Source: Geosiphon pyriformis uo1
Taxonomy: Eukaryota > Fungi > Glomeromycota
DNA: 64,000 nucleotides
Assembly: GCA_016748015.1 (NCBI GenBank)
Contig: JAAOMT010000294.1
Location: 164,541-228,540, forward strand
Direction of reading: 5' to 3'
The notes under the pieces were generated by a model. That model searched no databases. It was not told the DNA's origin and was given only the letters and a program-made list of their open reading frames with translations. Positions 5,090 to 54,096 of the stretch are shown here, piece after piece. Numbering within the stretch: the first letter of the stretch is position 1; each line of letters opens with the position of its first letter. Both the position numbers and the translations under genes were made by a program.

Positions 5090-5968
5090 TATTACAGGTG
5101 ATTATTTCTGTTGTTGAATTGAATAACAAACCCGTAACTTGGTACTCAAAAGCTATTTTTGTGGATGATGTGTGGAAGGTATGGTATCTGAAAGTTTTGG
5201 TTGATCTGAAAGTTTTGTTGTAGAGTTCTTTGTATAATAGACAGAGATTCAGTGGTGATAGTAGTAGTTTTTTTGAAGTCACAATTATGCCCAATTTCTT
5301 TCTCAGCTTGGCAGCCAAATTTATTCTGGCAGTCATGCCCTTCTGGTAAGCTATCTATTAATATATATAATTCTACCCTTATTTCTGGGTTTTTTACCAG
5401 GCTATCCTTGACATCAATAACTCAGTGCTTAATCTTTTTACTCAATTAGTATACAACAACAAAATCAAAGAAAAAAAAAAAAATAAAAATAAAGAAAATA
5501 AATTTAAAGAAAATAAAGAAAATAAGCCAAGGCAATTTGGTACATTAATATCTCATCAATAGCCATGATCAAGAGCTATTGTTCCAGCATGGTTAAGTAT
5601 TAATTATTATCAACATGAAGTGTTGATAGTGGAGAGTGGATTGAGATATGAAATAATTATTTATTTGATGATTGGTTTTTTGGCTAAGGATTCTGTGGTA
5701 TCAATTCTGTTTTTTCTGTTTCTAATACTACTGCTATATATACATAATTGGGATTCCTCAATTTCTTGATTTTTTATAACAGGAATCCTGCAATTCCTTT
5801 GAGAGGAATTTTGGAATTCTGGAATCCTGCAATTCCTCATCGGGGAATCCTGAAATTCCTGGAATCTTGCAATTTCTGAGAGGAATCCTGGAATTTCACA
5901 TTTACTACACTTATTTCTGATTGGCTAATAATTATGCTAATATATTTCCTATATTTCTATGAGTAACA
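5090..5968 (-). repeat. 5' LTR of E1 (GGAAT-N6-ATTCC repeat type)
   Basis: Ends t(a)ttaca...gagtaaca; homologous to E2/E3 LTRs; TATA-like TATATATA; repeat array ~5750-5900. Confidence 0.9.
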
Positions 5969-6252
5969 CCAGGAACATTAATCATCTTATACACATATTT
6001 TGCCAAAAAATTGTTCATGATAATTGTGACACCAGAACCCAAATAACCAGAGCCCAAACCAGAAATGAAAACCCAGACATCATCAAACTTATTCATAATC
6101 CATAAGTGGACCCTATCTCTTAACTTAGTCTCAGTAACAATAGAAATCAAATTGTTTATTTTGTTATGCCAACAAATTATATCATCCTGTTTTGTAAGAT
6201 TGTTCATACCCCTAACATTACATGTGGCAATTTTCCAAACCAGATCACTCAT
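5969..6252 (-). pseudogene. LINE ORF2 N-terminus, AP-like endonuclease (truncated by E1 insertion)
   Basis: IATCNVRG, ETKL and GSGVTII motifs of L1-type APE domains. Confidence 0.88.
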
Positions 6253-8195: not shown

Positions 8196-8320
8196 TGTAA
8201 CAAAAGGAGGAAAGTCAGAAAAAATAATTAAAAAAAAAACAAGGGAAAAGAAAAAAGACTAATTAAAACTTCAATAAAATTTTACTCTTGTCATAGTTAG
8301 GAGATCGACAAGAGAAAAAG

Positions 8321-11526: not shown

Positions 11527-12382
11527 TGTTACAAATGATTATTTGGGGTCTCAAAACAAATAACAAATTCGTAACTTGGTGCTTAATGAATTGATATGAT
11601 TATGTTGGTTTCCAAAAGGGTTGTAGATCTTTGTATAATGAACAGAGATTCTCTAGAGTTGGTTTTGGTTGCTTTCCTCAGTTGTTTTCCCAATTTCTGT
11701 CTTCAGTGTAGTGGCCAGTTTAATCTGTCAGTTGTGCCCTTCTGGTAAGCTATCCATTAATATATGTATAATTTTACCCTTATTTCTGGGTCTTTTACCA
11801 GGCTATTCATGACATCAGTAACTCAGTGCTTTAATTTTTAAGTAATTAGTAAATCCAAAAGAAATAACAAAAGAAATAAAAGAAATAAAAGAAGATAATG
11901 AAATAAGTAGAAGCAATTGCAAGTTAGAATCCCATCAATAGCCATGATCAAGAGCTATTGTTTCAGTGTGGTTAAGTATTAATTACTATCAACATAAAGT
12001 GTTGATAGTGAAGAGTAGATTGAAATAGTGAATAATTATTTATTAAATAGAAGGTTGCTTAGATCAAATCTAAACTGAGAGATCTCTAATTAAAGAATTC
12101 TGTCTTTTCTACTTTTAATGCTACCACTATATATACATAATTAAGATTCCTCAATTCCTCAATTTTTTATACCAGGAATTTTGGAATTTCTAGAATCTTG
12201 CAATTCCTTTTAAGAAGAATTCTGGAATTCTGGAATCCTGTGATTTCTTTGTACAAGAATCCTGAAATTTCTGGAATCCTGCAATTCCTCTTGAGAGGAA
12301 TTCTGGAATTCCACCTTTACTGTGCCTACTTCTAATTGGCTAATTTATATGCTACTATACTTCCTATATTCTATGAGTAACA
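11527..12382 (-). repeat. 3' LTR of E3
   Basis: tgttacaaatg...gagtaaca; matches 60791-61666. Confidence 0.95.
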
Positions 12383-12396
12383 TTATTCCTTTTTTT

Positions 12397-13034
12397 TTAA
12401 TATTGAGCTCCATTAAGATCTCCTAAATCTCCTAGCTCTACTTTTTTGTCATTGAGTATTTCTTGAACTTCTTTTTCGAGAATCACTTGGGTTATCTTGT
12501 TTTGTAATTCTTTAAATTGGGTGTTGGTTATTTTTCCCATTTGGTTAACTATAATAGAATCCAATTCTGGATTAAGTAAGATTTCTGTTTATCTTGAAAT
12601 TCAATATGTAGCCAATAGATGACTCTTGCTTGTGTAGTCAAGTTGTTTTTTTCCACAAATTGTTTCAGTTGTTGTAGTATTGTTGTGTTAAATAATTGTT
12701 TTGTTTTATTTGTGTATAAGTTCTGAATATTCAAGTGTCATCCCAAATGAAAATAGCAAAAGTTTCTTGGAAATTTGTGTATTCATCATTTCCAAGTTTT
12801 TTTGGTTAATTCTTGATATGTAGTAATATTTGTTGGCTTTTCCACTGCTAATTTTATTTTCTGTACCATTTTGTCAATAGTGTTTTCTGTTTTTTTTTGA
12901 CTTTTGTATTTGGGTATTTTTCTGGTATTTCAGTATCGAATGGTTTGTTGATTGATAGTAATTTCTATATTCTGTTGTTGAATTAGTTGGAAAAGTTGTT
13001 GTGTTAGTGAATGGTTATTGTCAGTAATTTCCAT
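12397..13034 (-). pseudogene. ORF3 of E3 (accessory ORF, variant 1)
   Basis: MEITDNNHSLTQQLFQL...CYFHLG.HLNIQ...NQMGKITNTQF...GAQY*; homologous to ORF3 of E4-E7. Confidence 0.75.
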
Positions 13035-13489: not shown

Positions 13490-14351
13490 TGTTACAGATG
13501 ATTATTTGGGGTCTCAAGTCAAATAACAAATCTGTAACTTGGTGCTTAGTTAGTATTCTGGTGTTGATATCTGAAGGTGTAGTTTATTTAAAGGTTTTGT
13601 TGTGGAGTTTTTTGTATAATAGACAGAGATATAATTAATGTTTTTATTTGTAGCTTTCTGAAACCACAGTTTTGTCAAATTTTTTTCTCAGTGTAGTGGC
13701 CAGTAATTTTCCTAGTAAGCTATTCTCAAATTTATGAGTGTTTTATCCTTGTTTTATGGGTCTTTTACCAGTTCCTATGACATTTGTAACTTAGTGCTTA
13801 ATCCTTAATCAATTTAGCAAAACCAAAAAAATAACAAAAGAAATAAAAGAAAATAAAAGAAGATAAAAAATAAACAAAAACAATTGCAAGTTAGTATCCT
13901 GTCAATAGCCATAATCAAGAGCTATTGTTCTAGCATAGTTAAGTATCAATTACTATTAACATAAAGTGTTGATAGTGGAGAGTAGATTGAGATAGTGAAT
14001 AATTATTTATTAATATTTTTGTGAATTGGAAGGTCACTTAGATGAACTCTAAACTGGAAGATCTCTAACTAAAAGATTCTGTTTTTTTATTTCTAATGCT
14101 ACCACTATATATACATAATTTGGGTTCTATGAGATTACTCACATTCTTGAGTGATGTGCTATAATTTCTCAAGCAATGCTCATATTGTTGAACAATGTGC
14201 TATATTTTCTTGACATCGCTCCACATTGCTAAGCAATGTGCCATGATTTCTAATATTGCTCCACATTGCTGAGCAATGTGCTCATGTGCTCACTATTACT
14301 CTCTTATTGGTCTACTATTTTTCTATATCTGTTTTCTTTTTATGAATAACA
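13490..14351 (-). repeat. 3' LTR of E4 (CACATTGCT-N-AGCAATGTG repeat type)
   Basis: tgttacagatg...aataaca; palindromes at 14222-14240 and 14262-14280. Confidence 0.95.
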
Positions 14352-14365
14352 TTATCTCCTCTTTT

Positions 14366-15002
14366 TTAATATTGAGCTCCGTCAAAATCTTTGTTTTGAA
14401 TTAATTCTAATACTTTTTTTTTCAAGTATTGTTTGTTTAACTCTGTTCCTTATGTCTTCTACTTGTGTATTGTTTATTCTTCCCCATTGGTTAATGGTTA
14501 TGGTTTTCATGTCAGAGTATAACAGTATTTCTGGATAGTTCCAAAATATGTTGTATAGTCGGTACATTGTTTTAACATGTAGTATTGAATTTGTTTTCTT
14601 TCTGATAAATTTTTAAATTTGTTGTATTATGTCTTGATTGAATATTTTCTTGGATTTGTCGATATACAACTCCTGAATATTCAACTTTTGACTTAACTGG
14701 TAGTAGCAATATGATATTAGAAGTTATTCTGTCCATTGTTTCCAATTTTTTTTTGTAAGCTCTTCTGTTGGTGCCATGATAGGTATTTTCCCAAAAGTGT
14801 TTTTTACTTTTTCTATTACATTATCTGTCCAGTTTTTATCATTCTTTAGTAGTCACTAATATGGTGTATTTTTTGTCTTTCTTTTGGTGTTTCGATAGCA
14901 AATTGTTTGGTTGTTAATAATAATTTTTATGTCTAACTGTTGTTGACTTAAGGCTTGGAACAATTGTTGAGTTATAGTATAAATATGATCTGGTATTTTC
15001 AT
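14366..15002 (-). pseudogene. ORF3 of E4 (variant 2)
   Basis: MKIPDHI...CYYQL...MYRLYNIF...NQWGRINNTQV...DGAQY*. Confidence 0.8.
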
Positions 15003-15062
15003 TTTTTTTGGTTGCTTTTGTCACATGTATTGTGTCTTTATATACTCTTTTGGTTGTTTACT

Positions 15063-24066: not shown

Positions 24067-24990
24067 TGTTACTCATAAAAAGAAAACAGATAGAGAAAAA
24101 TAGTAGACCAATAGGAGAATAGTAGTTAGCACGTGAGCACATGTGAAACAATATTAAAAATCACAGCATATTGCTTAGCAATGTAGAGCAATATCAGAAA
24201 TCATAGCACATTGCTTAGCAATGTGGAGCAATGTCAAAAAACATGGCACATCATTCAGCAATGTGAAGTAATGTTAGAAAATGAGAGCACATTGCTTAGC
24301 AATGTGAGCATTGCTCAAGAAATCATAGCACATCACTCAAAAATGTGAGTGATCTTGTAGAACATCAATTATGTATATATAGCAGTAGCGTTAGAAGTAG
24401 AAAGAACAGAATTCTTAGGTTAGAAACCATTCTGTTTAGATTTACTTTACACAACTTTCCACATCACAAATTATCAATAAATAATTATTCACTATTTCAA
24501 TTCATTCTCTATTATCAACACTTTATGTTGATAGTTATTGATACTTAACCACACTGGACCAATAGCTCTTAATCACAGCTATTGATAGGATACTAACTTG
24601 TTCATTGTCTTGGCTTATTTCTTTATGTTATTTTTTTTATTTTCTTGTCTTAATTGTTGTTATTACTAACTCTATTGAGGATTAATGCACAGGGTACTGA
24701 CATCAGAATATAGCACTGGTAAAAAACCCAGAAATAAGAGTAGGACACTCAATTGAAGTTAGCTTACCAGGAAAAACACCAGCCATTATGCTAAGAAAAA
24801 AATTGATGAAACTGCGGTTTCAGGAAGCTACAGATAAAACTATTACTACTGAATCTCTGTCTATTATATAAAGAACTCAACCAAAACCTTCAAATAAACA
24901 CACCTTCAGATTTCCATCATCAACAACCACCTTGAGCACCAAGTTATGGGTTTGTTATTTATTCCAATACCCAAATAATCACCTGTAACA
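24067..24990 (+). repeat. 5' LTR of E5
   Basis: TGTTACTC...TGTAACA; CCAAT at ~24109, palindromic repeats ~24130-24350, TATATATA at ~24375, AATAAA at ~24476. Confidence 0.95.
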
Positions 24991-25338: not shown

Positions 25339-26353
25339 TGTTACTAGAGGTTTTTGGTCTCTTTTCTTAAATGTTGGTAATGTTGATTTGCTGTGAATTC
25401 ACATTTTCAGGAAGTAGTTGAACCTCCAATAACTGAATTTATCTTCAAATTATCTCCTATAATTTGAACTGCTGGACTTATAAGTGGAATGGCCAATTCC
25501 TTGCCAGTTACTTTATGTAGTTATATTGTAGTAAATGTCAACTCTTTCCCAGGAATTGCTCGTTTGGAAGCTCACTAAAAATGTGTAGTTACTTTGCTGT
25601 AAAAGTCAACTCTTCTACAGGAATCTTGTTTGTAGGCTACCCTAATGATTATAGTAAGAAAAATAAAAGAAAATAAAAGAAATGTAAAAGAAATAGAATT
25701 TTTGTCAAGAGAAACGTTTTCTATCCAGACCTGGAGTCACTAACAGTTTACTGAAATTGGTAGCTAATCAATTTCGAAATGTTAGTTGGTTTTTGGGGAT
25801 TTTCTAAGGGCAATAATTAAAGAATTTGGTTTTTCAAATTATTTGGTATTTATTTCTTTTTGTGTGTGTAAAATTGGTTCTAAGTAATAAATCTAAAGTA
25901 AAATACATTTTTCAGAAGAGAAAAGCTCTTCTTTTATACAACTTGTTGTAGTACTAGTTTATAAACTTGCACTTTTTTTCTCTTTGCCCAAATTCCGGCA
26001 AACTAAAGATATATTTTGATGAACTACAAGTTATTTCACTGAACTATTGATTAATTTGGGTGAACTATTCATAATTTCGGTAAATTTCTGTAAATTTCGG
26101 CAAATTTCTTATAAATTTCAGCGAATTTCTGTAAATTTCAGCAAATTTTTGAATGTTACAAAGTTCAGAGTATTGTGTAATTTGATTATCTTACTTTCTG
26201 TTATACTAATTAGATTATTTTAATTGAATCGTGATATGTGATAATTGATTAAATAATAAATGATAATTTAAAATGATATTAATATACTAATGAATTATAG
26301 GAATTATAAGAGTAATTTTATGCTAATTAATAACTAAAATTCTACTGGTAACA
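25339..26353 (-). repeat. 3' LTR of E6 (family B)
   Basis: tgttacta...ctggtaaca; 20-bp AATTTCGGCGAATTTCTGTA repeats at 26073-26150; TATAAAAG at 25931-25938. Confidence 0.95.
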
Positions 26354-27041
26354 TAATCTCCTCCTCAAAACTGAGCTCCATCAAAGTCCAAGCACTATCT
26401 GTAATATTGAGATAGTGATCTAAAATGATTGAAGTAATCTGGTCTGAAAATTGTTGAAATTTCAGTTCTGTGAGTTTGCCAATGTATTGGACTTTCATTG
26501 ATTGCAGTATTGGATTTTGTAGAACATTTTCACAAGTATTAAACAAATCATAGAGTCTAAAAGCTGCTCTAAGTTTGTAGCGAGTGTTTGTTGATCCAGC
26601 TGCTGTTTTGAATTCATTGTAGATTTGTTTTTATATAACTTCAGGAGTGAGATTTGTTGCTTCAAGTTCCAGTTTTTGTTCATAAAGTGTTTTTCCAATT
26701 TAAAAGTATTTATAGATAGAGGTGTGTTCATTGTTCTGTTCATTAAGAAGTAGTAGTAGTTTTTGTTGCATTGTAGCATTTGGTGGAATGTCAATAGGGG
26801 CAATTAGCAGATTTTCTTCTAGTGCCTGCTTCAAAAGTCTTGGTAATCTATTCTCAGAGTGACTTTTTGTTTCTCTTCTATAGGGGTAATAGTTCTGTAA
26901 ATGATTTGCTACTGGAGCTGTGGTTTCTTTCTGAATGTATTTAATTTGACTTCCATTAATCGTTATAGATAAGTTAGGGAGTGTTTTCAAGGCTAACATT
27001 AATTTTTGGAATATTTGTTAAATATTTCGGGAAATAATCAT
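26334..27041 (-). pseudogene. ORF3 of E6 (variant 3)
   Basis: MIISRNI.QIFQKLMLALK...YKYF.IGKTL...AFRLYDLF...IMLPVEF*; stop lies inside the 3' LTR. Confidence 0.82.
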
Positions 27042-27212: not shown

Positions 27213-30200
27213 TTAAGTGTTCAAGTTTGGTTGTTGTTCTATTATAATTATTGGTTCTAAATTTCGGGGAATATCTTCAGGATTAATTAAAAGGGAATGT
27301 GTACCAATTTGTGGAATTAATGGTTCAGGATTGTTTCTGGAATAATAGTGTTTCAGTCTGTCTCCATGTGCAACTTTTGCCAATATTTTGTTATCAAGTC
27401 TTAACTTATATGATTCATTGCCTAGAATTTCATGAATATAAAATAGTCCATCCCATTTGTTTTCAAATTTCTCACTCCATTGTTTTTCAGCCTTAGTTCT
27501 GTGTAAGAGAACTTTATTTTCAACTTTAAATTTGTTGGTAATAAATGGTAATTTGTTGTCATGTCTTTCTTTTTGTTGAGCTTGGGAATGTTCAATATGA
27601 GCTGCTGCTATTCTTCTTTTTTCTTCCAGTGTACTAAGAAGAGTGTAGGCTCTTCTTTAGAGTGTCTCTTGAAAGTTTTCTTCATTGATTGGTTGCACTG
27701 GATATGTTTCCACTGTGAAATTAATTGGTAATGTTGCTGTCCTTCCATAAGTAAGATCAAATGATATGTGTTTCATAGTATCTTGTTTTAGTGTTCTGTA
27801 TGCTAGTAACACTGATGGAATAAAGATATTCCATTTCTGTTCAAAGTCTGTTGAGACTTTGGCTAAAGATTCACACAATGTTCTGTTGAAATGTTCTACA
27901 AGTCCATTTGTTTAAGGGTGATAAGGTGATGATAAAGGTCTTTTGACATTGAACCATTCACAAATTTCTTGTATCAAGTTGTTCACAAAATGTGTTCCTT
28001 GATCAGATAAAAATTCAATTGAACATTCATGTCTACAAATAATGTCTTCATAGATGAAATTTGCTATTGATTTTGCATCTGCTCTTTGGATAGCTCTAGC
28101 TTCTGGCCATTTGGTAAGATAATCTACTGCTACTGCAATATAGCAATTTCCTTGGGTTGTGATAGATAATGGTCCGATTAAATCAATTCCAACTCTGTCA
28201 AAAGGTTGTCCAATTTTAATTGGATTTAAAGGTTCTGTGGGGTGAGTTCCTCCTTTTCTTTGGCAGTTATTACAAGATTCTACATATTGTTGAATGTCTT
28301 TTTGCATGTGAGGCCAAAAATAATGTTCAAGGGTTCTTTGAATTGTTCCCTCTTTTCCCAAGTGTGCTGAAGACAGATCTGTGTGCATGTTGTATAAAAT
28401 TGTTTCTTTTTTATTCTCTTGTACTAATATGAGTGGCTGGTTTGGTTTTCTGTAATTTTTATAATAAATTTTGTTCTGATGTATGAAATATTGTTTTGAT
28501 TGGTGTTGTAAGTGGTGTTTTCACTTGGAGACCAGTTTTCTGGCATGGTAAGGATCTCCAAATAATTTTTAAGATTGCTGTAGTTTCTGGGATCCATTCT
28601 TGTTTGGTTATTTTGTTGGTAAGTTGGTAAGTTGTAGTGGAATTGTTGTTGGTATTAATCTTGTCTCATTCTTGAGAGGCTATCAACATTGGTATGTAGT
28701 TTTCCTGGTTTGTGGTGTACAATATATCTGTAGTCTGCTAGGAAGTTATTCCATCGAGACTGTTTGGCACTTTGTTCAGTTTTTTTTTTATTGAGCTATT
28801 TGAGGCCAATGTTGTCCGTTATTATGTCAAATTCTTTTCCATTTTTCAGATATTGTTGAAAATGTTTAAGAGCCCAAATAACTGCAGCAGCTTCTAATTC
28901 AGTTGAGCCATATTTGAGTTCTGTTGGCTTGAGTGTTCTGCTGGCATAGGCAATAACTTGTTCTTGGCCATTTTCATCCAATTGTGATAAAATGGCACCA
29001 AATGCTATGTATGAGGCATCAGTGGCTAATTGGAATCGTTTGTTGAAGTCTGGATAAGCAAGAACTGGGGCTGTTGTCAATTTTGTTTTGAGAATTTCAA
29101 AAGCTTTTTGTTGTTCTTCAGTCTATTTGTATGGTATGTTTTTGTTGATAAGATAATTGAGTGGTTTGGCAATTTCTGAGAATTTTTTTATGAATTTTCG
29201 ATAGTAAGAGGCTAATCCCACAAATCTTCTTAGTTCTGTAGTATTTCTGGGGATTTAAAAGTTTTTGACAGCATTGATTGTTCCTGGATTTGGTTTGATT
29301 CCATCTTTACTAACTATGTGTCCAAGAAAGATTAAACTTGTTTTTCCAAAGTGATATTTCTCAATATTTAACTTTAATCCTGCTTTCTGTAATCATTGAA
29401 AAACTTCTTGTAGGTGAATGAAATGGGCTTCAAAGCTTGGTAAGTATACATCAGTATCATCAAGATAAACAACTACTGATTGCCACAAGAGCCCTTCATA
29501 GACAACATTCATGAGCTGCTGAAATGTTGCTGGTGCATTGCAGAGTCCAAAAGGCATAACATTAAACTCATAATTTCCTCATTGAATGGTGAATGCTGTT
29601 TTGGGTCTATCTTTTGGGTCCATTTCGACTTGCTAGTATCCACTTTCCAGGTCTAAAGTTGAAAAGAACTTGGCTTTTCCCAGAGCATCTAGCATGTCAT
29701 CAATTCTTGGAAGAGAGTAGGCATCTCTAATTGTAACACTATTCAGTTGTCTATAATCAACACAGAATCTAATTTTTCCGTTTTTCTTTTTAACTAAAAC
29801 TACTGGTGAGGCCCAAAGACTTCTTGATGGTTGAATCAATTCGTTATTGAGCATTCTTTGGACCTCTTCTCTGATAAATTGGTGGCTGGCAGGTGGCACT
29901 CGATAAGCTTGTTGATGTTTTGGTAGAGCATTTCCTGTATGAATCTGATGTTGAACAATGTCTGTTTTTCCCAAGTCATTGTTGTCTTTTGCAAATATAT
30001 TTGCAAATTCAGCTATCAATTGTTTCAATTGTCTTTGTTGTTGAGGTTCTAAGGGACCCATATTGATTCGAGAGAGTTTTTCTTCCAACAAGTGGTAGTT
30101 TTCAGTAGTGGGAATGATATTTGGATTTGGGAGTAGAGTGTGCTTTATAATTTCGATGAAATTAGAGACAATTTGAGGGTTTTCATCTTAAAAGATATTG

Positions 30201-33200
30201 CTGTGTATGATTCCAATTTCTAATTTGTTTAATAAAACAATAGGGTAATTATTGGGGTTGTAGAATGTAACTCAAAATTTTTTCATTCCTTTGGGAATAT
30301 AAACATTTGGAATTGATATTTCATGCTTCAAACAGATTTGTTCATTGGATTCAAAGATTTGTTGGGTAGTAGTGAGTTTTGAGCAAGTGTAAATTTCGTG
30401 ATGTTCTCCAAAAAATGAAATGGTAATTGGCTGAGAAAGTTGAAGAATCTGGTGAGATTTATTTTGTGTATTAAGAACTATGTTTACTGGAACTGTAAAT
30501 CGTCCAGTTGAACCAAAACCTTGAGTTCCTCTTTTACTTTTTCCCAATTGTTCTCTGTTGTTTACTGATTGTAAACCCGAAATGTTGATTAAGGGTAAGT
30601 AAATTGCTTGAGCAATTTTTTCAGCATGTTCAATTTTGAATGGTTTGTCTGTCTCATTCTGTAACATGATGGTAATGTCTCCAGTGTATTCTGCATCTAT
30701 AACTCCTCCTCTAATATTGATTCCTTTGCTTGCCAATAATGATCTGAAGACAATTTGAACCATTGCTCCTGGTAGAATTTCAAGAGCAATTTTTAGATTG
30801 ATTTTTGTCAAGGACTTTGGTTGGAGAATCAAAGTATCTTTTCCTGGGTATCTCAAGTCATATCCAGCATCAATTTCGTGTGCTTTTTCTAGTCTGATTC
30901 TTTGGCCATGGTTGTCAAAATATTTAAGTTGTAAAGATGGTTGCTTTTCAAGAAGATAGATGGAGGTGGTTGGTAGTTCTTCTACTTGTTCAGATACTCC
31001 AAATTCGATTTCATTTTCATCATTCTTATCTGGCAGAGGAATGCTAAGAGCATAACATTCTAAACATCATTGGTTATCACAAGGCATAACACATTCTTCA
31101 CACAATTAAATGTTCATTTGCTCTAATTATTGAATTTGAGCTTCTTTGGTCGGATATGTGTGGCTTGCAATTTGGTGGTAGGTTTCTACTTTATCTTCAT
31201 AATCAAATCCAGCTAATTCCATAGTGTACTCAATATATTCAGCTTCTTTCATTTGGCAGACATCTTCTTGAATGGCTCCATTGATTAATGTCATTGCTAG
31301 GTCAAAAATCATTTCAGTATCATGAGGGTAGTGGTAAAGTTTATTGAGAGCACTGTTATATGCTGCATCAAATGGTGTTCCTCTTCTGACTTTTTTCGAA
31401 ATTGATAGAGCATATTGACAGGTTTGATCACATACTCCTCCTCTCATTGCTACATCAATCCAATTGCATTCTTCTGGTAGTATTTCTCCACATGTAAGAC
31501 AAGGTGTGTTGTCTCATTTTCCACTTCTTTTTGGAGATCCAAATCGTTCTCTATGGCATGCTTTGTAAAAGTAACAGGTATGAGTTTCATATTCCTCTTC
31601 TGAAGAAATACATGCTCCCATTGATGAAAGTTTTTTGTTGCAATCTTTGCATTTGAGTGGAATATAGAGTGGTTGTTTCTGTGGTTCTGGTATAGAATAT
31701 CTAACTTTCTTCCATCCCCTTGATTCTTCGAAAATCTCTTGTTCAGTTTCTTCAGCCCAATTGGATGTTGATCCAAGAGCCATGTAGGTTTCAATAAGTG
31801 GCATTTCTTTCTCCTCTTCAAATTCAAATACTGGAGCTTTTTCTGATCGTTTGTTAAAAGTACTACAGATTGCAGGTACTATGGTATATTGTCCTTGGTA
31901 TGAGATTTTAAGTTCTTGAGTTTCTCAGTTCAGGTTTGCATTGGCCTTGAGAAGCCAATCATTTCTGACTAGAGCTTGGTATTGGGGTGCATCTATAACA
32001 AGAACTTTAACTAGAATAGTGATTTCATCAATTGAAAAAGGGAAATCATTAATTTCTCCTACTGGAGTCTTCTTCATACCATCAGCTGTGACAATAACTG
32101 TTTGAGCTGGTCTGTTTACATTTCGTTTGAGTTGTTGCATCAGCTGGTAAGTGATGATACTTCCAGCTGATCTACTATCTAAGATTAACCGAATGAATTT
32201 TCCTTCCACTGTAGCTTCTGTGTACATGGCAGTAATTGCTTTCTGTTCATTGACTGCTGTATTACTAAGCAGAAATGGTGATTCATTTGCCTCAAATTCA
32301 AATGGAAATATATCTGACAGATTAGCATTTTGGGCAATTTGAGCTGAGAAAATGGTGTGGTTGGAAGAGTTCAATCTTGGTGCTGCAATTTCACTTTCAG
32401 AAAGTGCAGTTTGTTGAAAATCCGATTCCTCTGGTATTGTAAGATAACTGGGTTGAGTGTGATAGTGATTGGGTTTTTGCTGGCCCGAATTTTGGGGAAC
32501 CAACTGGTTATTTGGATTGATTCTGTTGTGGTTATTCTGCAATTGATTTTGGGGTGTGAATTGGTTATGTTGAACCAATCTTCTTGCTGGTACTTAATAT
32601 TGTTGAGTGGGTGGTGTCTGATATGGCTGAATTGGTAAAAGTTGCTGATATTGTTGCTGCATTGATTGTGGAGCTGGTGGATAGTAACTGTTTTGATTTT
32701 GTGGCCTTGGTGAATAATAAGTTGGTGGTGAAGATTGGTAATAGAATTGTTGTGGTAAAAGAGTAACGTTGATTACTCCTGTTTTGTTGGTCTTTTTGTA
32801 ATTTCCTACAATCTCGTTTCCAGTGTCTTGGAATTCCACAATAATGACAATTTTGAGATTGGTTGTTGGATGATGATTCAAAATTGTTTTGGTTGTGTCA
32901 TTGTGGGGGTTGATATCTTTGTGGTTGTTGTGGCTGTTGTTGTTGGTTTGTGAAGTAGCTTTCAACTTTTTTTGTGAGTTGGTCTATCTTCTTTTCAGCT
33001 GCTGAGCTGGTTTCTCCAATTGCAAGATTTACAAGCTTGGTGTGATTTGCTTCTTTCATTGCCATTTCATAGCTCTTTGCCTGTCTAATAGCAGTTGCTA
33101 AGTCTGCTGGAGCATATGGACAGACTTTCTTAATCAGTTTGTCTTTTAACCCTGCTATAAACTAATTCAGAATTTGAGCATCAGAATAGTAGTCATTGGT

Positions 33201-34055: not shown

Positions 34056-34274
34056 NNNNNNNNNNNNNNNNNNNNNNNNNNNNNNNNNNNNNNNNNNNNN
34101 NNNNNNNNNNNNNNNNNNNNNNNNNNNNNNNNNNNNNNNNNNNNNNNNNNNNNNNNNNNNNNNNNNNNNNNNNNNNNNNNNNNNNNNNNNNNNNNNNNNN
34201 NNNNNNNNNNNNNNNNNNNNNNNNNNNNNNNNNNNNNNNNNNNNNNNNNNNNNNNNNNNNNNNNNNNNNNNNNN
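34056..34274. other. Assembly gap (219 N) covering E6 gag start, PBS and U5 end
   Basis: N run; both flanks match E7 (47619 and 48044). Confidence 0.99.
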
Positions 34275-35093
34275 CCAATTCCTTGCCAGTTACTTTATGT
34301 AGTTACGTTGTAGTAAACGTCAACTCTTTCCCAGGAATTGCTTGTCTGGAAGCTCACTAAAAATGTGTAGTTACTTTGCTGTAAAAGTCAACTCTTCTAC
34401 AGGAATTTTGTCTGTAGGCTACCCTAGTGATTATAGTAAGAAAAATAAAAGAAAATAAAAAAAATGTAAAAGAAATAGAATTTTTGTCAAGAGAAACGTT
34501 TTCTATCCAGGCCTGGAGTTACTAACAGTTTACTGAAATTGGTAGCTAATCAATTTCGAAATGTTAGTTGGTTTTTGGGGATTTTCCAAGGGCAATAATT
34601 AAAGAATTTGGTTTTTCAAATTATTTGGTATTTATTTCTTTTTGTGTGTGTAGAATTGGTTCTAAGTAATAAATCTAAAGTAAAATACATTTTCCAGAAA
34701 AGAAAAGCTCTTCTTTTATACAACTTGTTGTAGTACTAGTTTATGAACTTGCACTTTTTTCTTTTTGCCCAAATTCTGGCAAATTAAAGATACATTTTGA
34801 TGAATTACAAGTTATTTCACTGAACTATTGATTAATTTGGGTGAACTATTCATAATTTCGGCGAATTTCTGTAAATTTCGGTGAATTTTTGAATGTTACA
34901 TAGTTCAGGGTATTGTGTAATTTGATCATCTTACTTTTTGTTATACTAATTAGATTATTTTAATTGAATTGTGATATGTAATAATTGATTAAATAATAAA
35001 TGATAATTTGAAATGATATTAATATACTAATGAATTATAAGAATTATAAGGGTAATTTCATGCTAATTAATAGCTAAAATTCTACTGGTAACA
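34275..35093 (-). repeat. 5' LTR of E6 (U5 end in gap)
   Basis: Matches 25493-26353; ends ctggtaaca followed by TSD acaa. Confidence 0.93.
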
Positions 35094-38911: not shown

Positions 38912-39922
38912 TGTTACCGGAGGTTTTTGGTCTCTTTTCTTGAATATTATAACTGTCTGTTGGTTGCAAATTCATGTTTTTTAGAAGTAGTTGAACCTCC
39001 AATAACTGAATTTATCTTCAAATTATCTTCTATAATTTGAACTGCTGGACTTATAAGTAGAATGGCCAATTCTGTGCCAGTTGCTTTGTGTAGTTACATT
39101 GTAGTAAATGTCAACTCTCTCCCAAGAATTGCTCGTCTGGAAGCTCACTAAAAATGTGTAGTTACTTTACTGTGAAAGTCAACTTTTCTACAGAAATCTC
39201 ATCTGTAGGTTACCTTAATGATTATGATAAAAAAATAAAAGGAAATAAAAGAAATATAAAAGAAATAGAATTTTATCAAGGAAAACGTTTTCTATTCAGG
39301 CCTGGAGTCACTAACAAATCATTGAAATTGGTAGCTAATCAATTTCAAAACGTTAGTTGGGTTTTGGGAATTTTCCAAGTGCAATAATTAAAAATTTTGG
39401 TTTTTCAAATTATTTGATATTTATTTTTTTTTGTGTGTATAGAAATAATTCTAGTGATAAAATCTAAAGTAAGATACATTTTCTTGAAGAGAAAAGCTCT
39501 TCTTTTATACAACTTGCTGTAGTACTAGTCTATAAACTTGCACTTTTTCTCTTTGCTCAACTTTTGGTAAACTAAAGATACATTTTGATAAACTACAAGT
39601 TATTTCGCTGAACTATTGATTAATTTGGGTGAACTATTCATAATTTTGGCGAATTTCTATAAATTTTGGCAAATTTCTTATAAATTTCAGTGAATTTCTG
39701 TAAATTTTGGTGAATTTTAGAATGTTACAAAGTTCAGAGTATTGTGTAATTTGATCATCCTACTTTCTGTTATACTAATTGGATTATTTAATTAAATCGT
39801 AATATGTGATAATTGATTAAATAATAAATAATAATTTGAAATGATATTAATATATTAATTAATTATAGAAATTATAAGGGTAATTTTTCTGCTAATTAAT
39901 AGCTAAAATTCTACTGGTAACA
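38912..39922 (-). repeat. 3' LTR of E7
   Basis: tgttaccgg...ctggtaaca. Confidence 0.96.
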
Positions 39923-40610
39923 TAATTTCCTCCTCAAGACTGAGCTCTGTCGAAGTCCAAGCACTATCTGTGATATTGAGATAATGATCCAAAATAATTG
40001 AAGTAATTTGGTCTGAAAATTGTTGAAATTTCAGTTCTGTAAGTTTGCCAATATATTGGATTTTTATTGGTTGCAGTATGAGATTTTGTAGAACATTTTC
40101 ACAAGTATTAAACAAATTATAAAGTCTAAAAGCTGTTCTAAGTTTGTAGTGAGTGTTTGTTAGTCCAGCTGCTGTTTTAAATTCATTGTAAATTTTTTTT
40201 TGTATAGCTTCAGGAGTGAGATTTGTTGCTTCAAGTTCCAGTTTTCGTTTATAAAGTGTCTTTCCAATGTGAAAGTATTTATAGATAGGGGTGTGTTCAT
40301 TGTTCTGTTCATTAAGAAGTAGTAGAAGTTTTTGTTGCATTGTAGCATTTGGTGAAATGTCAATAGGAGCAATTAAAAAATTTTCTTCCAGTGTTTGCTT
40401 CAAAAGTCTTGGTAACCTATTTTCAAAGTAACTTCTTGTTTTTCTTCTATAAAAGTGATAGTTTTGTGCATGATTTACTACTGGAGCTGTGGTTTCTTTT
40501 TGAATGTAATTAATTTGACTTCTATTAATCGTTATGGATAAGTCAAGAAGTGTTTTTAAGGCTAACATTAACTTTTGGGATATTTGTTGAATATTTTAGA
40601 GAATAATTAT
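39903..40610 (-). pseudogene. ORF3 of E7 (variant 3; open for 221 aa from 40568, ancestral ATG at 40610 now ATA)
   Basis: Uninterrupted frame; no signal peptide or TM helix visible; homologous to E6 and family-A ORF3. Confidence 0.85.
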
Positions 40611-40784: not shown

Positions 40785-43700
40785 TTTAAGTGTTCAAATT
40801 TGGTTGTTGTTCTATTATAATTATTGGTTTTAAATTTCGGGAAATATCTTCAGAATTAATTAAAGGAAAATGTGTACCAATTTGTGGAATTAATAGTTCA
40901 GAATTGTTTCTGGAATAATAGTGTTTCAATCTGTCTCCATGTGCAACTTTTGCTAGTATTTTGTCATCAAGTCTTAACTTGTATGATCTATTGCCTAGAA
41001 TTTCGTGGATATAAAATGGTCCTTCCCATTTGTTTTCAAATTTCCCACTCCATTGTTTTTCAGCCTTAGTTCTGTGTAAAAGAACTTTATTTCCAACTTT
41101 AAATTCATTGGTAATGGGTGGTAATTTGTTGTCATGTCTTTCTTTTTGTTAAGCTTGAGAATGTTTGATATAAGTTGCTGCTATTTTTTTTTTTTCTTCC
41201 AGTGTACTAAGAAGAGTGTAGGCCCTTCTTTGGAGTGTTTCTTGAAAGTTCTCTTCATTAATTGGTTGCACAGGGTATGTTTCTACTGTGAAATTAATTG
41301 GTAATATTGCTGTCCTTTCATAAGTTAAATCAAATAGTGTGTGTTTCATGGTATTTTGTTTTAGTGTTCTGTATGCTAGTAACACTGATGGAATAAAGAT
41401 ATCCCATTCCTGCTCAAAGTCTGTTGAGACTTTGGCTAGAGATTCACACAATGTTCTGTTAAAACATTCTACAAGTCTATTTGTTTAAGGGTAATAAGGT
41501 AATAATAGAGATCTTTTGACATTGAATCATTCACAAATTTCTTGTATCAAGTTGTTCACAAAATGTGTTTCTTGATCAGATAAAAGTTCAATTGGACATC
41601 CATGTCTACAAATAATGTTTTCATAGATGAAATTTGCTACTGATTTTGCATCTGCTCTTTAGATGGCTCTAGTTTCAGGCCATTTAGTGAGATAATCTAC
41701 TACTACTGCAATATAGCAATTTCCTTAGGTTGTAATAGGTAATGGTCCGACTAAATCAATTTCAATTTTGTCAAAAGGTTGTCCAACTTTGATTGGATTT
41801 AAAGATTCTATGAGACGAATTTCTCCTCTTCTTTGACAACTATTACAAGATTCTACATATTGTCGAATGTCTTTTTGCATGTAAGGCCAAAAATATTGTT
41901 CAAGAGTTCTTTGAATTGTTCCATTTCTTTCCAAGTGTGCTAAAGACAGATCTGTGTGTATGTTATATAAAATTGTTTTTTTTTCATTCTCTTGTACTAA
42001 TCTGAGTAGTTGGTTTGGGTTTCTGTAATTTTTATAATAGATTTTGTTGTGGTGTATGAAATATTGCTTTAATTGGTGTTGTAAACGATGTTTTTCACTT
42101 GGAGACCAATTCTTTGGCATGGTAAGGGTCTTCAAATAGTTTTTAAGATTGCTGTAGTTTCTGGAATCCATTGTTGTTTGGTTATTTTGTTGGTAGGTTA
42201 GTAAGTTATGATGGAATTGTTGTTGGTGTTAGTCTTGTCTCATTTTTGAGAGACTATCAACATTGGTGTGTAGTTTTCCTGGTTTGTAATGTACAATATA
42301 TCTGTAGTCTGCTAGGAAGTCATTCCATCAAGACTGTTTGGCACTTTGTTCAGTTTTTTTTTTATTAAGCCATTTGAGACCAATATTGTCAGTTATTATG
42401 TTAAATTCTTTTCCATTCTTCAGGTATTGTTGAAAATGTTTAAGAGCCCAGATAACTGTAGTGGCTTCCAATTCAGTTAAGCCATATTTGAGTTTTGTTG
42501 GCTTGAGTGTTCTACTGGCATAGACAATGATTTGTTCCTGGCCATTTTTATTCAATTGTAATAAAATGGCACCAAATACTATGTGTGAAGCATCAGTGGC
42601 TAATTGGAACCGTTTGTTGAAGTCTGGGTAAGCAAAAACTGGGGCTGTTGTCAATTTTGTTTTGAGAGTTTCAAAAGCTTTTTGTTGTTCTTCAGTCCAT
42701 TTGTATGGCATGTTTTTGTTGGTAAGATAATTGAGTGGTTTGGCAATTTCTGAGAATCTTTTTATGAATTTTTAATAGTAAGAGACTAATCCTACAAATC
42801 CTCTTAGTTCTGTGGTATTTCTGGGGGTTTGAAAGTTTTTGACAGCACTGATTGTTCCTGGATTTGGTTTGACTCCATCTTTACTATCTATGTGTTCAAG
42901 AAAAATCAAACTTGTTTTTCCAAAGTGATATTTCTCAATATTTAACTTTAATCCTGGTTTTCGTAATCATTAAAAAACTTCTCATAAGTAAATGAGATGG
43001 CTTCAAAGCTTGGTGAATATACATCAGTATTATCAAAATAGACAACTACTGATTGCCACAAGAGCCCTTCATATACAACATCTATGAGTTGCTAAAATGT
43101 TGCTGGTGTATTGCAAAGTTCAAAAAGCATAACATTGAACTCATAGTTTTTTCCTTGAATAGTAAATACTGTTTTGGGTCTATCTTTTAGGTCTATTTCA
43201 ATTTGCCAGTATCCACTTTCCAGGTCTAAAGTTGAGAAGAACTTGGCTTTTCTTAGAACATCTAGCATGTTATCAATTCTTGGAAGAGGGTAGGCATCTC
43301 CAATTGTAACACTATTCAGTTGTCTATAATCAACACAGAATCTGATTTTTCTGTTTTTTTTTTTAACTAAAACTACTGGTGAGACCCAAGAACTTCTTGA
43401 TGGTTGAATCAATCCGTTATTGAGCATTCTTTGAACCTCTTCTTTGATGAATTGGTGACTGGCAGGTGGCACTCAATAAGCTTATTGATGTTTTGGTAGA
43501 GCATCTCCTATATGGATCTGAACAATGTCTGTTTTTCCCAAGTCATTGTTGTCTTTTGCAAATATATCTGCAAATTCAGCTATCAATTGTTTCAATTGTC
43601 TTTGTTGTTGAGGTTCTAAGAGACCCATGTTGATTTGAGAGAGTTTTTTTTCCAAAAAGTGGTAGTTTTCAGTAATGGGAATGATATTTGGATTTGGGAG

Positions 43701-46700
43701 TAGAGTGTGCTTTACAATTTCGATAAAATTAGAGACAATTTGAGGGTTTTTATCTTGAAAGATATTGCTGTGTATGATTCCAATTTCTAATTTGTTTAAT
43801 AAGACAATAGGGTAATTATTGGAGTTATAGAATATAACTTGAAATTTTTTCATTCCTTTGGGAATATAAACATTTGGGATTGAGATTTCATGCTTCAAAC
43901 AGATTTGTTTATTGGATTCAAAGATTTGTTGGGTAGTAGTGAGTTTTGAGCAAGTGTAAATTTCGTGATGTTCTCCAAAAAATGAAATGGTAATTGGTTG
44001 TAAAAGTTGAAAAATCTGGTGAGATTCATTTTGTGTATTAAGAGCTATGCTTACTGGAACTGTAAATTGTCCAGTTAAACCAAAACCTTGCATTCCTCTT
44101 TTACTTTTTCTTAATTGTTCTCTGTTGTTAACTGATTGTAGACCCGAAATATTAATTAAGGGTAGGTAAATTGCTTGAGCAATTTTTTCAGCATGTTTAA
44201 TCTTGAATGGTTTGTCTGTTTCATTCTGCAACATGATGGTAATGTCTCCAGTGTATCCTGCATCTATAACTCCTCCTCTAATATTGATTCCTTTGCTTGC
44301 CAATGATGATCTGGAGGCAATTTGAACCATTGCTCCTGGTGGTATTTTAAGAGCAATTTTGAGATTGATTTTTGTCAAGGACTTTGGTTGGAGAACCAAA
44401 GTATCTTTTTCTGGGTATCTTAAATCATATCCAGCATCAATTTCGTGTGCTTTTTCTAGTCTGATTCTTTGGCCATGGTTGTTGAAATATTTAAGTTGTA
44501 GAGGTGGTTGCTTTTCAAGAAGATAGATGGAGGTGGTTGGTAGTTCTTCTACTAGTTCAGATACTCCAAATTCGATTTCATTTTCATCATTCTCATCTGG
44601 CAGAAGAATGCTAAGAGCATAACATTCTAAACACCATTGGTCATTACAAGACATAACACATTCTTAACACAATTGAATGTTCATTTGCTCTAATCATTGA
44701 ATTTGAGCTTCTTTGGTCGGATATGTGGCTTGCAATTTGGTGGTAGGTTTCTACTTCATCTTCATAATCAAATCTAGCTAATTCCATGATATACTTAATG
44801 TATTTAGCTTTTTTCATTTGGTGGATATCTTCTTGGGTGGCTTCATTAATCAATGCCATTGTTAGATCAAAAATCATTTCAGCATTATGAAGGTAGTGGT
44901 AAAGTTTATTGAGAACACTGTTGTATGCTGCATCAAATAGTGTTCCTCTTCTGACTTTTTCCGAAATTAATAGAACATATTGACAAGTCTGATTACATAC
45001 TTTTCCTCTTATTGTTACATCAATCCAATTGTATTCTTCTGATAGCCTTTCTCCACAAGTAAGGCAAAGAGTTTTGTCCCATTTTCCACTTCTCTTTGAG
45101 AATCCAAATCGTTCTCTATGGCATGTCTTGCAGAAGTAGCAAGTGTGAGTTTCATATTTTTCTTCTGAGAAAATACAGGCTCCCATAGATAAAAGCTTTT
45201 TTTTGCAATCTTTGCATTTTAGTGAAATGTATGGTGGTTTTTTTTGTGGTTCTGGTGTGGAATATCTAACTTTCTTCCATCCTCTTGATTCTTCAAAAAT
45301 CTCTTGTTTTGTTTCCTCAGCCCAATTGGATGGTGATCTAAGAGCCATGTAGGTTTCAGTGAGTGGCATTTCCTTTTTTTCTTCAAATTCAAATACTGGA
45401 GCTTTTTCTGATCATTTGTTAAAAGTACCATAGATTGCAGGTACTATGGTATATTGTCCTTGGTATGAGATTTTAAGTTCTTGAGTTTCCCAGTTCAGGT
45501 TTGCATTGGCCTTGAAAAGTTAATTATTTTTGACTAGAGCTTGGTATTGGGGTGCATCTATAACAAAAATTTTAACTGGAATGGTGATTTCATCAATTGT
45601 AAAGAGAAAATCATCAATTTTTCTTATTGGAGTCTTCTTCATACCATCAGCTGTGACAATAACTGTTTGAGCTGGTCTGTCTATGTTTCGTTTGAGTTGT
45701 TGCATTAGCTGGTAAGTGATGATACTTCCAGCCGATCTACTATCTAAGATTAAACAAATAGGTTTTCCTTCCACTGTAACTTCTGTGTACATAGCAGTAA
45801 TTGCTTTTTGTTCATTAACTGCTGTATTACTAAGCAGAAATGGTAATTCATTTGCTTTAAATTCAAATGGAAATATATCTGACAAATTGGCATTTTGGGC
45901 AATTTAAGCTGGTGAAATGATGTGGTTGGAAGAGTTTGATTTTGGTGCTGCAACTTCACCTTCAGAAAGTGCAGTTTGTTAAAAATCCGATTCCTCTGGT
46001 ATTGTAAGATAACTGAGTTGAGTGTGATAGTAATTGGGTCTTTGCTAACCAGAATTTTGGAGAACCAACTGGTTATTTGAATTGATTTTGTTTTTGTTAC
46101 TCTGCAATTGATTTTGGGGTGTGAATTGGTTATGTTGAACCAATTTTCTTGCTGATACTTGATATTGTTGAGTGAGTGGTGTCTAATATGGCTGAATTGG
46201 TAAAGGTTGCTGATATTGTTGCTGCATTAGTTGTGAAGCTGGTGGATAGTAACTGTTTTGATTTTGTGGTTTTGGTAAATAATAGGTTGGTAATAGAGAT
46301 TGGTAATAAGATTATTGTGATAAAGAGTAACATTGATTACTTCTGTTTTGTTAGTCTCTTTTTAATTTCTTACAATCTCGTTTCCAGTGTCCTGGAATTC
46401 CACAATAATGACAATTTTGAGGTTGGTTGTTGAATGATGATCCAAAATTGTTTTGGTTGCATCATTGTGAGGGTTGATATCTTTGTGGTTGTTGTTGCTG
46501 TTATTGTTGGTTTGTGAAGTAGCTTTAAATCCTTTTTGTGAGTTGGTCTATCTTCTCTTCAGCTGCTAAGCTGGTTTCTCCAATTGCAAAGTTTACAAGC
46601 TTGGTGTGATTTGCTTTTTCTATTGCCATTCCATAGCTTTTTGCCTGTCTAATAGCAGTTGCTAAGTCTGCTGGAGCATGTGGATGGACTTTTTTAATCA

Positions 46701-47844: not shown

Positions 47845-47889
47845 TTTGAATTTGTTGTTACTGTGTTATTTCTGTGGAAGAGCACCAAA

Positions 47890-48900
47890 TGTTACTGGAG
47901 GTTTTTGGTCTCTTTTCTTGAATGTTGTAACTGTCTGTTGGTTGCAAATTCACGTTTTCTAGAAGTAGTTGAACCTCCAATAACTGAATTTATCTTCAAA
48001 TTATCTTCTATAATTTGAACTGCTGGACTTATAAGTGGAATGGCCAATTCCGTGTCAGTTGCTTTGTGTAGTTACATTGTAGTAAACATCAACTCTTTCC
48101 CAGAAATTACTCGTCTAGAAGCTTACTAAAAATGTGTAGTTACTTTGCTGTAAAAGTCAACTTTTTTACAGGAATCTTGTCTGTAGATTATCTTAATGAT
48201 TATGATAAGAAAATAAAAGAAAATAAAAGAAATATAAAAGAAATAGAATTTTATCAAAGAAAACGTTTTCTATCCAGGCCTGGAGTCACTAACAAATCAC
48301 TGAAATTGGTAGCTAATCAATTTCAAAACGTTAGTTGGGTTTTGGGGATTTTCCAAGTGCAATAATTAAAAAATTTGGTTTTTCAAATTATTTGATATTT
48401 ATTTCTTTTTGTGTGTATAGAAATGGTTCTAGTGATAAAATCTAAAGTAAGATACATTTTTTTGAAGAGAAAAGCTCTTCTTTTATACAACTTGTTGTAG
48501 TACTAGTCTATGAACTTGTACTTTTTCTCTTTGCTCAACTTTTGGCAAACTAAAGATACATTTTGATGAACTACAAATTATTTTGCTGAACTATTAATTA
48601 ATTTGGGTGAACTATTCATAATTTCGGCGAATTTCTATAAATTTTGGCAAATTTCTTATAAATTTCAATGAATTTTTGTAAATTTTGGTGAATTTTAGAA
48701 TGTTACAAAGTTCAAAGTATTGTGTAATTTGATCATCCTACTTTCTGTTATACTAATTGAATTATTTAATTGAATCGTAATATGTAATAATTGATTAAAT
48801 AATAAATAATAATTTGAAATGATATTAATATATTAATTAATTATAGAAATTATAAGGGTAATTTTTCTGCTAATTAATAGCTAAAATTTTACTGGTAACA
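47890..48900 (-). repeat. 5' LTR of E7
   Basis: Colinear with 38912-39922. Confidence 0.96.
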
Positions 48901-52504: not shown

Positions 52505-52564
52505 AATCAAACAATAAAGAGTATATAAAGACACAGTATATGCGACAAAGGCAACTAAAAAAAA

Positions 52565-53200
52565 ATGGAAATACCAGATCATATTCATGCCATAGCTCAA
52601 CAATTATTCTAGGCTTTAAGTCAACAACCCTTAGACATGGAAATTATCATTAACAACCAAACAATTTGCTATCAAAACACTAAAAGAAAGACAAAGAATA
52701 TACCATATTAGTGGTTATCAAAGAATAATAAAAACTGGTCAGATAACATAATAGAAAAAGTAAAGAACACTTTTGAGAAAATACCTATTATGGCACCAAC
52801 AGAAGAGTTTACAAAAAAAAATTGAAAGCAATGGACAGAATGACTTCCAATATCATATTGCTACTACCAGTTAGGTCAAAAGTTGAATATTCAGGAGTTG
52901 TATATCGACAAATCCAAGAGAAAATTCAACCAAAACATAATACAACAAATTGAAGAATTTATTGGAAAGAAAACTAATTCAACACTACATGTTAAAACAA
53001 TGTACTGACTACACAACATATTTCAGAACTATCTAGAAATACTGTTACACTCTGACATAGAAACCATAACCATTAACCAATGGGGAAGAATAAACAATAC
53101 ACAAGTAAAAGATGTGAGAAACAGAGTTGAATAAACAATACTTGAAAAAGAAGTATTAGAATTAATTCAAAACAAAGATTTTGATGGAGCTCAATATTAA
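52565..53200 (+). pseudogene. ORF3 of E5 (variant 2)
   Basis: MEIPDHIHAIAQQLF.AL...CYYQLGQKLNIQ...DGAQY*; nearly the same protein as E4 ORF3. Confidence 0.82.
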
Positions 53201-53212: not shown

Positions 53213-54096
53213 TGTTACTCATAAAAAAAAAACAGATAGAGAGAAATAGTAGACCAATAGAAGAATAGTAGTTAGCATGTAAACACATATGGAACAATGT
53301 CAGAAATCATGGCACATTGCTCAGCAATATGGAGCAATGTCAGAAAACATGGCACATTATTCAACAATGTGAAGCAATGTTAGAAAATAAGAGCACATCA
53401 CTCAGCAATGTGAGCATTGCTCAAGAAATCATAGCATATTGCTCGGGCATGTGAGCAATCTCATAGAACATTAATTATGTATATATAGCGGCAGTGTTAG
53501 AAGTAGAAAGAGCAGAATCCTTAGGTTAGAAACCATTCTGTTTAGATTTACTTTACACAACTTTCTACATCACAAATTATCAATAAATAATTATTTACTA
53601 TCTCAATCTATTCTCCATTATCAACATGAAGTGTTGATAGTCATTGATACTTAATCACACTGGACCAATAGCTCTTGATCACAGCTATTGATAGAATACT
53701 AACTTGCTTATTGCCTTGGCTTATTTCTTTATGTTATTTCTTTTATTTTCTTGTTTTAATTGTTGTTATTACTAACTCTATTAAGGATTAATGCACGGGG
53801 TACTGACATCAGGATATAGCACTGGTAAAAGACCCAAAAATAAGGGTAAGACACTTGATTAAGGTTAGCTTACCAGGAGAAACACTGGCCATTATGCTGA
53901 GAAAGAAATTGACAAAACTGTGGTTTCAGAAAACTATAGATAAAACTATTACCACTGAATCTCTGTCCATTATACAAAGGACTCAACCAAAACCTTCAGA
54001 TAAACACACCTTCAGATTTTCATCATCAACAACCACCTTGAGCACCAAGTTACAGGTTTGTTATTTACTCTAACATTTAAATAATTACTTGTAACA
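53213..54096 (+). repeat. 3' LTR of E5
   Basis: Matches 24067-24990 minus one 40-bp unit; followed by TSD atgg. Confidence 0.95.

Follow-up and report, generated by a model that had tools for sequence, protein, structure and literature searches.

On sequence grounds, ORF3 of the fungus Geosiphon pyriformis is an accessory gene that is conserved among fungal Ty3/Gypsy retrotransposons and does not encode a membrane protein, and it is inherited as a single block together with a repeat array, specific to its type, in the U3 region of the same element. We propose that its product is a cognate LTR transactivator, which would bind its own U3 array and activate its own promoter, and we assign this reading a probability of roughly 45%. 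The window (i.e., the whole stretch of 64,000 nt of G. pyriformis DNA that was analyzed) holds several such elements, and their features are collected in Table 1.

The window is a nest of Ty3/Gypsy elements

The window consists of nested LTR retrotransposons, designated E1 to E7. Pfam searches returned protease, dUTPase, RNase H, and integrase domains in Ty3/Gypsy order, and the elements show the hallmarks of that group, namely, LTR ends of the form TG..CA, a polypurine tract (PPT), and the order protease-RT-RNase H-integrase. The 5′ LTR of E3 lies at 61671, and its 3′ LTR ends at 11527; the integrase of E3 is interrupted by E4 and E5, and E5 in turn contains E6 and E7. We assigned E3, E4, and E5 to family A, and E6 and E7, which carry ORF3 variant 3 (V3), to the wholly diverged family B. 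LTR pairs in the window are 89 to 96% identical with differences that are nearly all transitions, and the observed/expected CpG ratio of the window is 0.16.

Several other features of the elements were observed. The dUTPase sits between protease and RT in families A and B alike. RNase H is terminated by a stop codon in 6/6 elements (a metagenomic locus, L001, being counted), and in 5/6 the integrase has its own ATG 25 to 65 nt past that stop, in differing frames; since integrase is seemingly a separate ORF, "ORF3" may be a fourth ORF. Our literature search found no description of a separate-ORF integrase arrangement of this kind. TGGTGCT forms the first bases past the 5′ LTRs of E1, E3, E4, E5, and E7 and reads as a primer-binding site common to both families. 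E1 was inserted into a decayed non-LTR-like fragment (5980-8200, minus strand), which we take, by a familiar motif, to have an endonuclease-type start, and E6 has a 219-base N gap (34056-34274) between its 5′ LTR and gag.

Table 1. Positions of ORF3 copies, U3 arrays, and associated features in the window
Feature	Position	Strand	Remarks
ORF3 variant 3 of E7	39903..40610	-	Start codon lost, stop at codon 5
ORF3 variant 3 of E6	26334..27041	-	3 internal stops
ORF3 variant 2 of E4	14366..15002	-	Stops, late frameshift
ORF3 variant 2 of E5	52565..53200	+	6 internal stops
ORF3 variant 1 of E3	12397..13034	-	Stops, frameshift near 12589
Predicted all-helical ORF3 core (E7)	39978..40358	-	127 aa, pLDDT 92, pTM 0.84
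E7 polypurine tract, crossed by ORF3	39926..39935	-	Position taken from the sequence
E7 3′ LTR	38912..39922	-	95% identity to 5′ LTR
E7 5′ LTR	47888..48900	-	V3 array at 48619-48695
E7 integrase, broken	40843..42171	-	Own ATG after the stop terminating RNase H
V3 array, E7 3′ U3	39641..39717	-	4 units, 20-21 bp period, core TTCG-N-CGAA
V3 array, E6 3′ U3	26072..26148	-	5′ LTR copy 34853-34888
V2 palindrome array, E4 3′ U3	14181..14280	-	5′ LTR copy 23380-23480
V2 array, E5 3′ U3	53313..53453	+	40-41 bp period; 5′ LTR copy 24167-24306
V1 GGAAT-N6-ATTCC array, E3 3′ U3	12175..12312	-	5′ LTR copy 61476-61596
V1 array, E1 5′ LTR	5782..5897	-	E1 3′ end beyond window
Second 21-bp tandem unit	39602-39649, 26033-26081, 34814-34859, 48560-48631
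Lone V3-like site, integrase end	E7 40832..40847; E6 27259-27274	- (E7)	About 225 nt upstream of ORF3
GTATATAAAG	15035-15046; 52519-52530	-; +	Approximate
dUTPase regions	43485-44663, 30275-31066, 18266-19045, 261-1175, 56507-57151
RNase H stop/integrase start regions	E7 42228, E6 28640, E4 16500, E5 51065, E3 54600, L001:774-799

ORF3 is shared by the elements and shows purifying selection

The E7 frame picked out by an earlier sequence-only reading proved to be real, with 230 codons free of stops (40595-39906, minus strand). Its first codon is ATA, where E6 and the database copies have ATG, and its fifth codon is a stop; the next Met, at 40568, gives a 221-aa form, as in many database copies. 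The frame reads across the PPT and ends 20 nt into the 3′ LTR. It is a mutationally damaged version of an accessory gene that is conserved between integrase and the 3′ LTR of dUTPase-bearing Ty3/Gypsy elements, and the ORF3 copies in the window are all dead. Using intact database copies as tblastn queries, we found ORF3 in 5/5 elements with a 3′ end in the window, with E3 carrying V1, E4 and E5 V2, and E6 and E7 V3. The statement that every intact element has an ORF3 therefore stands as to presence but not as to intactness, since all of these copies have stops or a frameshift. The motifs said to be shared among the variants were recovered, i.e., KYFHIG, FRLY, and YIGKLT in V3 together with their V1 and V2 counterparts. 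At the amino acid level, V1 and V2 are 36 to 45% identical, and V2 and V3 are 21 to 26% identical, a match that is weak alone (E 7e-4 in the window) and is linked by bridging sequences.

Relatives of the E7 ORF numbered 196 among 647 candidates; of 120 listed, 119 are hypothetical proteins of Geosiphon pyriformis and 1 is the window's own, and the named close relatives are all G. pyriformis proteins among the matches listed. A search of 1.84 billion representatives yielded 38 matches, 5 of which have less than 40% identity and are true by alignment (P0151, P0155, P0156, P0157, and P0159); P0152, P0153, P0154, and P0158 were dropped as relatives, their matches being driven by repeats. The distant relatives (22 to 37% identity) include an intact metagenomic element, L001, in which P0151 is flanked by integrase and the PPT and is an intact ORF of 230 aa. 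A second metagenomic locus, L002, carries another relative. A V2 query returned 4 relatives; a mixed profile returned 17, with none beyond this group.

Public gene models often fuse ORF3 to integrase or to unrelated TE pieces (P0038, P0060, P0087, P0106, P0126, and P0156), and these look like annotation artefacts on dead copies; their integrase fragments were too noisy to gauge the exchange of backbones between V3a and V3b. In addition, an unnamed ESM Atlas cluster (98 proteins, 190 aa, commonest in Mucoromycota) scored 0.92 to 0.94 against E7 ORF3 and P0151 and may be a wider family.

The comparison of variants called for by the sequence-only reading, made on natural copies with the L002 rows left out, found pN far below pS. 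Between V1 and V2, pS was 0.75 to 0.81 and pN 0.31 to 0.32; pN and pS were 0.07 and 0.20 for E6/E7, 0.08 and 0.17 for E4/E5, and 0.45 and 0.63 for E7 versus L001. The V1 and V2 alleles, at 41 to 45% amino acid identity, are thus under purifying selection, with synonymous sites saturated.

Predicted anatomy of ORF3 and searches for related families

No hydrophobic segment was found in 8/8 ORF3 proteins by a plain hydropathy scan (best 19-residue Kyte-Doolittle mean at most 1.29), which agrees with the earlier view that ORF3 lacks a transmembrane helix; the same 8 proteins have 1 to 3 cysteines each. AlphaFold modeled the full-length protein with a mean pLDDT of 73, as a low-confidence N-terminal helix and hairpin (pLDDT about 60), a disordered linker (residues 35-57), then the helical core, and lastly a tail of low confidence. 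The core alone is confidently predicted as an all-helical, soluble domain (Table 1), as had been suggested. Neither an absence of purifying selection nor an env-like fold, both of which the sequence-only reading had named as fatal to its proposal, was observed.

Charge is distributed unevenly along the protein. Past a conserved G-x-T-N turn, helix 144-165 has a net charge of +2 to +5 in 11/11 rows, and its first residues vary by ORF3 type. The linker, with a PY-x-R/K motif, carries +2 to +6 in 9/11 rows (one row has 0 and one has no linker). The tail, a low-pLDDT region, carries -3 to -7 in 10/11 rows, the remaining row being trimmed, and is acidic even in types whose ORF terminates short of the PPT; the purine tract dictates part of it in V3 and the metagenomic copies. 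Overall, P0151, P0155, and P0159 are not basic (pI 5.4 to 6.9). The charge distribution as a whole fits an activator that binds DNA.

The window ORF had no match in Pfam, and neither Pfam nor profile comparison gave a significant sequence match between ORF3 and DNA-binding families. A likeness to YhcG-N/DUF1016 domains had been proposed, and here the motifs Y-x-x-IG, G-x-[TS]-N, and R-x-Y-x-x-F are in register with YhcG-N over about 60 columns, but the scores are not significant and come mainly from V3 rows. DUF1016_N (PF17761) was hit weakly in 12/70 V3 copies and 1/11 diverse rows, at best with E 0.0028 and 18.2 bits, below the Pfam cut-off of 32.8, and hhalign, with profiles that were shallow (13 YhcG N-termini), gave probabilities of 6.0% (E 0.006) and 0.3% (E 0.18). 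We regard this likeness as a lead and not as membership.

Structure searches against PDB, BFVD, and wide VIA returned nothing significant for the full-length model (best Z 5.2), and the core domain gave nothing significant against BFVD and wide VIA (best Z 5.8). Among helix-turn-helix DNA-binding proteins, the core aligned with Spo0J 1vz0 (Z 4.5, rmsd 4.1, 91 aligned) and ParB 6s6h (Z 4.4, rmsd 5.0, 93 aligned) at background level. The sole match in a PDB sequence search was at E 0.77, PHROGs gave unnamed families only (best recurring phrog_23683, 7/18), and nothing came from the A4 scan of viral contigs or from a tblastn search of phages and plasmids with P0051 as the query. The ESM Atlas feature matches (0.92 to 0.94, recognition below 2300) are leads only.

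Each ORF3 type is paired with one U3 array

Across 13 U3 stretches, each array motif is present in 2 to 6 copies in LTRs of its own type (shuffles, at most 0.07) and is absent from LTRs of the other types, and this diagonal motif-by-LTR table bears out the proposal of one array type per ORF3 type. The array sites of the window elements are confined to U3, just upstream of the TATA box. Dyad symmetry had been attributed to all three arrays; V1 and V2 are perfect dyads, but the V3 unit as originally written is self-complementary at 10/16 positions and has no exact copy, its dyad being a 9-bp core, TTCG-N-CGAA. The E2 tail had been credited with GGAAT-N6-ATTCC, which is not the case: its U3 is too decayed to match the V1 motif, of which no copy was found even with 1 mismatch allowed, and is V1-type by alignment only (75 to 76%). 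The family-A R/U5 regions were said to stay homologous while the array is swapped, and indeed the TATA/R region is homologous and U3 is at shuffle level.

Among 13 V2 units (14181-14280, 23380-23480, 24167-24306, and 53313-53412), one position carries either ATTGCT or ATCACT/ATCATT. Since this variation follows a decayed-CpG pattern, the operators may have been methylatable; V3 units contain CpG. In family B, the stretch of U3 that separates the V3 array from the TATA box also contains another tandem unit, of 21 bp.

Cassette exchange or linkage

Among E3, E4, and E5, integrase C-termini are 82 to 88% identical with 1 to 2% transversions. ORF3 DNA is 63 to 66% identical between V1 and V2, with 20% transversions, and 90% identical within V2 (E4/E5), and U3 is 57 to 64% identical between V1 and V2 (shuffle, 58 to 62%) and 83% identical for E4/E5. 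In the TATA+250 region, E3/E4 identity is 87% versus 78% for E4/E5, and E4 is a mosaic along gag-pol as well. Given that V1/V2 ORF3 and U3 lie between near-identical integrase ends and a homologous R, the block moves as a cassette, i.e., old ORF3 alleles and their arrays are transferred together in about 900 nt. A PPT block of 38 to 40 nt, 88 to 92% identical, is conserved between ORF3 and U3 and could permit crossing, and none of E3, E4, and E5 has crossed there. This support for a cassette is new but thin, with three family-A elements giving full pairs. A switch near R downstream is expected from strand transfer without selection.

ORF3 and U3 adjoin each other and, between types, are so diverged that templates could be switched only within the PPT block of 40 nt; linkage would therefore give the pattern observed. 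In this rival reading, which we hold somewhat less probable than the transactivator, ORF3 would be a real accessory protein with a different function (RNA handling, particle assembly, nuclear entry, or contact with a host protein), and the U3 arrays would be host transcription-factor sites, with the pairing reflecting plain linkage of neighbouring unalignable blocks. Linkage gains from the adjoining positions, from the shuffle-level identity of V1/V2 DNA in ORF3 and U3, and from tandem arrays being common in the U3 of LTRs. It also gains from the complete divergence of family B, which makes the V3 pairing uninformative on co-evolution. Indeed, V3 N-half, C-half, and LTR-encoded tail likewise stay together: 91 of 145 V3 proteins have a typed tail (49 a/PVEF, 42 b/PDEIRDII, and 0 crossed), the rest comprising 47 without a readable tail and 7 with another tail, and separate V3 lineages would yield the same uncrossed tails. 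Linkage leaves unexplained, however, why synonymous-saturated ORF3 alleles sit on backbones with such similar integrase ends, and why a U3 motif stands upstream of ORF3 in L001.

Contig joints were also inspected. Among 15 of 130 joints, 8 were E3-E4 joints (5 at the integrase end or spacer and 3 at R), none of them within ORF3 or at the PPT, and among 15 of 53 further joints none was at the PPT. In one ambiguous contig row, a PPT region of V2 is joined to an ORF3 tail of V1, and this row may represent a non-cognate pairing. The contigs are too truncated for such joints to be counted.

Putative internal sites upstream of ORF3

L001 has a fourth ORF3 type with a fourth U3 motif, TTGCCCT, which is not a dyad. 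The motif occurs five times (0.35 expected). U3 contains 3 of these copies, and the other 2 lie in the non-coding spacer between integrase and ORF3, where they stand ahead of TATAAA. Since TTGCCCT was chosen from the U3 copies, only the 2 spacer copies count as a test, and the signal comes from this single element with a motif chosen post hoc. In the window elements, the U3 motif upstream of ORF3 is not above chance: the lone V3-like site at the integrase end of E7 and E6 does not exceed it, V2 has no sites outside the LTRs, and a 9-mer matrix for internal operator copies in 6 elements gave no diagonal. In V2, the ORF3 ATG is preceded at a distance of about 40 nt by GTATATAAAG, a possible internal promoter that is not conserved in V1.

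A candidate mechanism and its alternatives

If ORF3 is a cognate transactivator, the operator would be read by residues 148-162, i.e., by the basic helix that follows the G-x-T-N turn and has type-specific N-terminal residues. The basic PY linker may serve for nuclear import or as a DNA arm, the disordered acidic tail may act as an activation domain, and an internal promoter upstream of ORF3 could provide positive feedback. Cassette swapping would allow families to share enzymes and keep private on-switches; lambdoid immunity regions offer an analogy for a specificity cassette that is swapped whole. The fuller version of this proposal, in which a Ty3/Gypsy element of early-diverging fungi encodes a new-fold transactivator whose allele and operator are exchanged as one cassette, with Tas-like feedback from an internal promoter, is one that we hold tentatively, at a slightly lower probability.

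ORF3 may instead bind its cognate array to counteract silencing in the manner of VANC, or to repress the element and so restrain its copy number, and not act as a classical activator; we consider this unlikely. The low CpG ratio, the LTR pairs that differ almost only by transitions, the CpG in V3 units, and the paired CpG-decay forms in V2 units would suit such a role. So would two reports, according to which a related fungus methylates TE CpGs (10.1101/2021.03.30.436303) and VANC acts on tandem motifs that evolve in concert with it (PMC5735166). The sites, however, lie only in U3 near the TATA box and not throughout non-coding regions, no Pfam match ties ORF3 to VANC or MAIN, and the acidic tail better suits activation. 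The view that ORF3 is env-like, a membrane protein, or a frame kept open without selection is very improbable and largely refuted: ORF3 does sit at the env position, and one ESM Atlas feature match is a closterovirus coat protein (0.93, low recognition), but the low hydropathy and few cysteines of all 8 proteins, pN far below pS, the soluble helical model, and conservation across 22 to 37% identity argue against it.

Comparison with known systems

The function of non-env extra ORFs in LTR retrotransposons is an open question. Sense additional ORFs between pol and the 3′ LTR (aORF-3S) are described as env-like with TM segments or as GDSL/DEDDy enzymes (PMC7264820), and bdelloid ORF3s are further sense additional ORFs past pol (PMC5408684). 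ORF3 resembles these in its sense orientation, its position between integrase and PPT, and its presence in all copies of the family under selection (5/5 window elements with a 3′ end, L001, and the 196 relatives). It differs in lacking both a TM segment and a Pfam family and in a type that tracks the U3 array. With the YhcG N-terminal domain, ORF3 shares three motifs in register, with scores far under the family cut-off.

VANC is a factor of a DNA transposon (VANDAL) with same-orientation motifs in introns and upstream regions (PMC5735166) and is MAIN-derived (PMC13547354). ORF3 is likewise TE-encoded, has a type that matches a tandem motif type, and has a host that is likely to methylate TEs, but it belongs to an LTR element, its sites are mostly dyads confined to U3, and the Pfam listings for ORF3 contain no VANC/MAIN family, so that no homology was seen.

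Sequence-specific transactivators are known from complex retroviruses. Foamy-virus Tas is an LTR transactivator with response elements and provides a precedent for the logic of self-activation (PMC3798896). ORF3 is similar to Tas in being an accessory ORF of 200 to 300 aa beside the 3′ LTR, divergent between lineages, with an acidic region and with sites in U3, plus sites upstream of the ORF in L001 alone. Unlike Tas, ORF3 belongs to a Ty3/Gypsy element without env, and internal sites are not evident in V1 or V2; the likeness is drawn from sequence and predicted structure, and no database search gave a sequence match between the two. In a literature search that covered main texts and few subscription journals, we found no account of this ORF family, which supplementary TE libraries could list, and no Ty3/Gypsy-encoded LTR transactivator.

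LTR elements make up 41% of the G. pyriformis genome (PMC11952901), so a self-activation cassette could help explain their expansion. The at least 4 natural protein/array pairs offer a ready test of cross-specificity and, if the proposal is true, an orthogonal set of eukaryotic activators and operators. Judging from sequence, we conclude that ORF3 represents a real and previously undescribed family of accessory proteins, linked to type-specific U3 arrays in the manner of a cassette, and that it may work like Tas.
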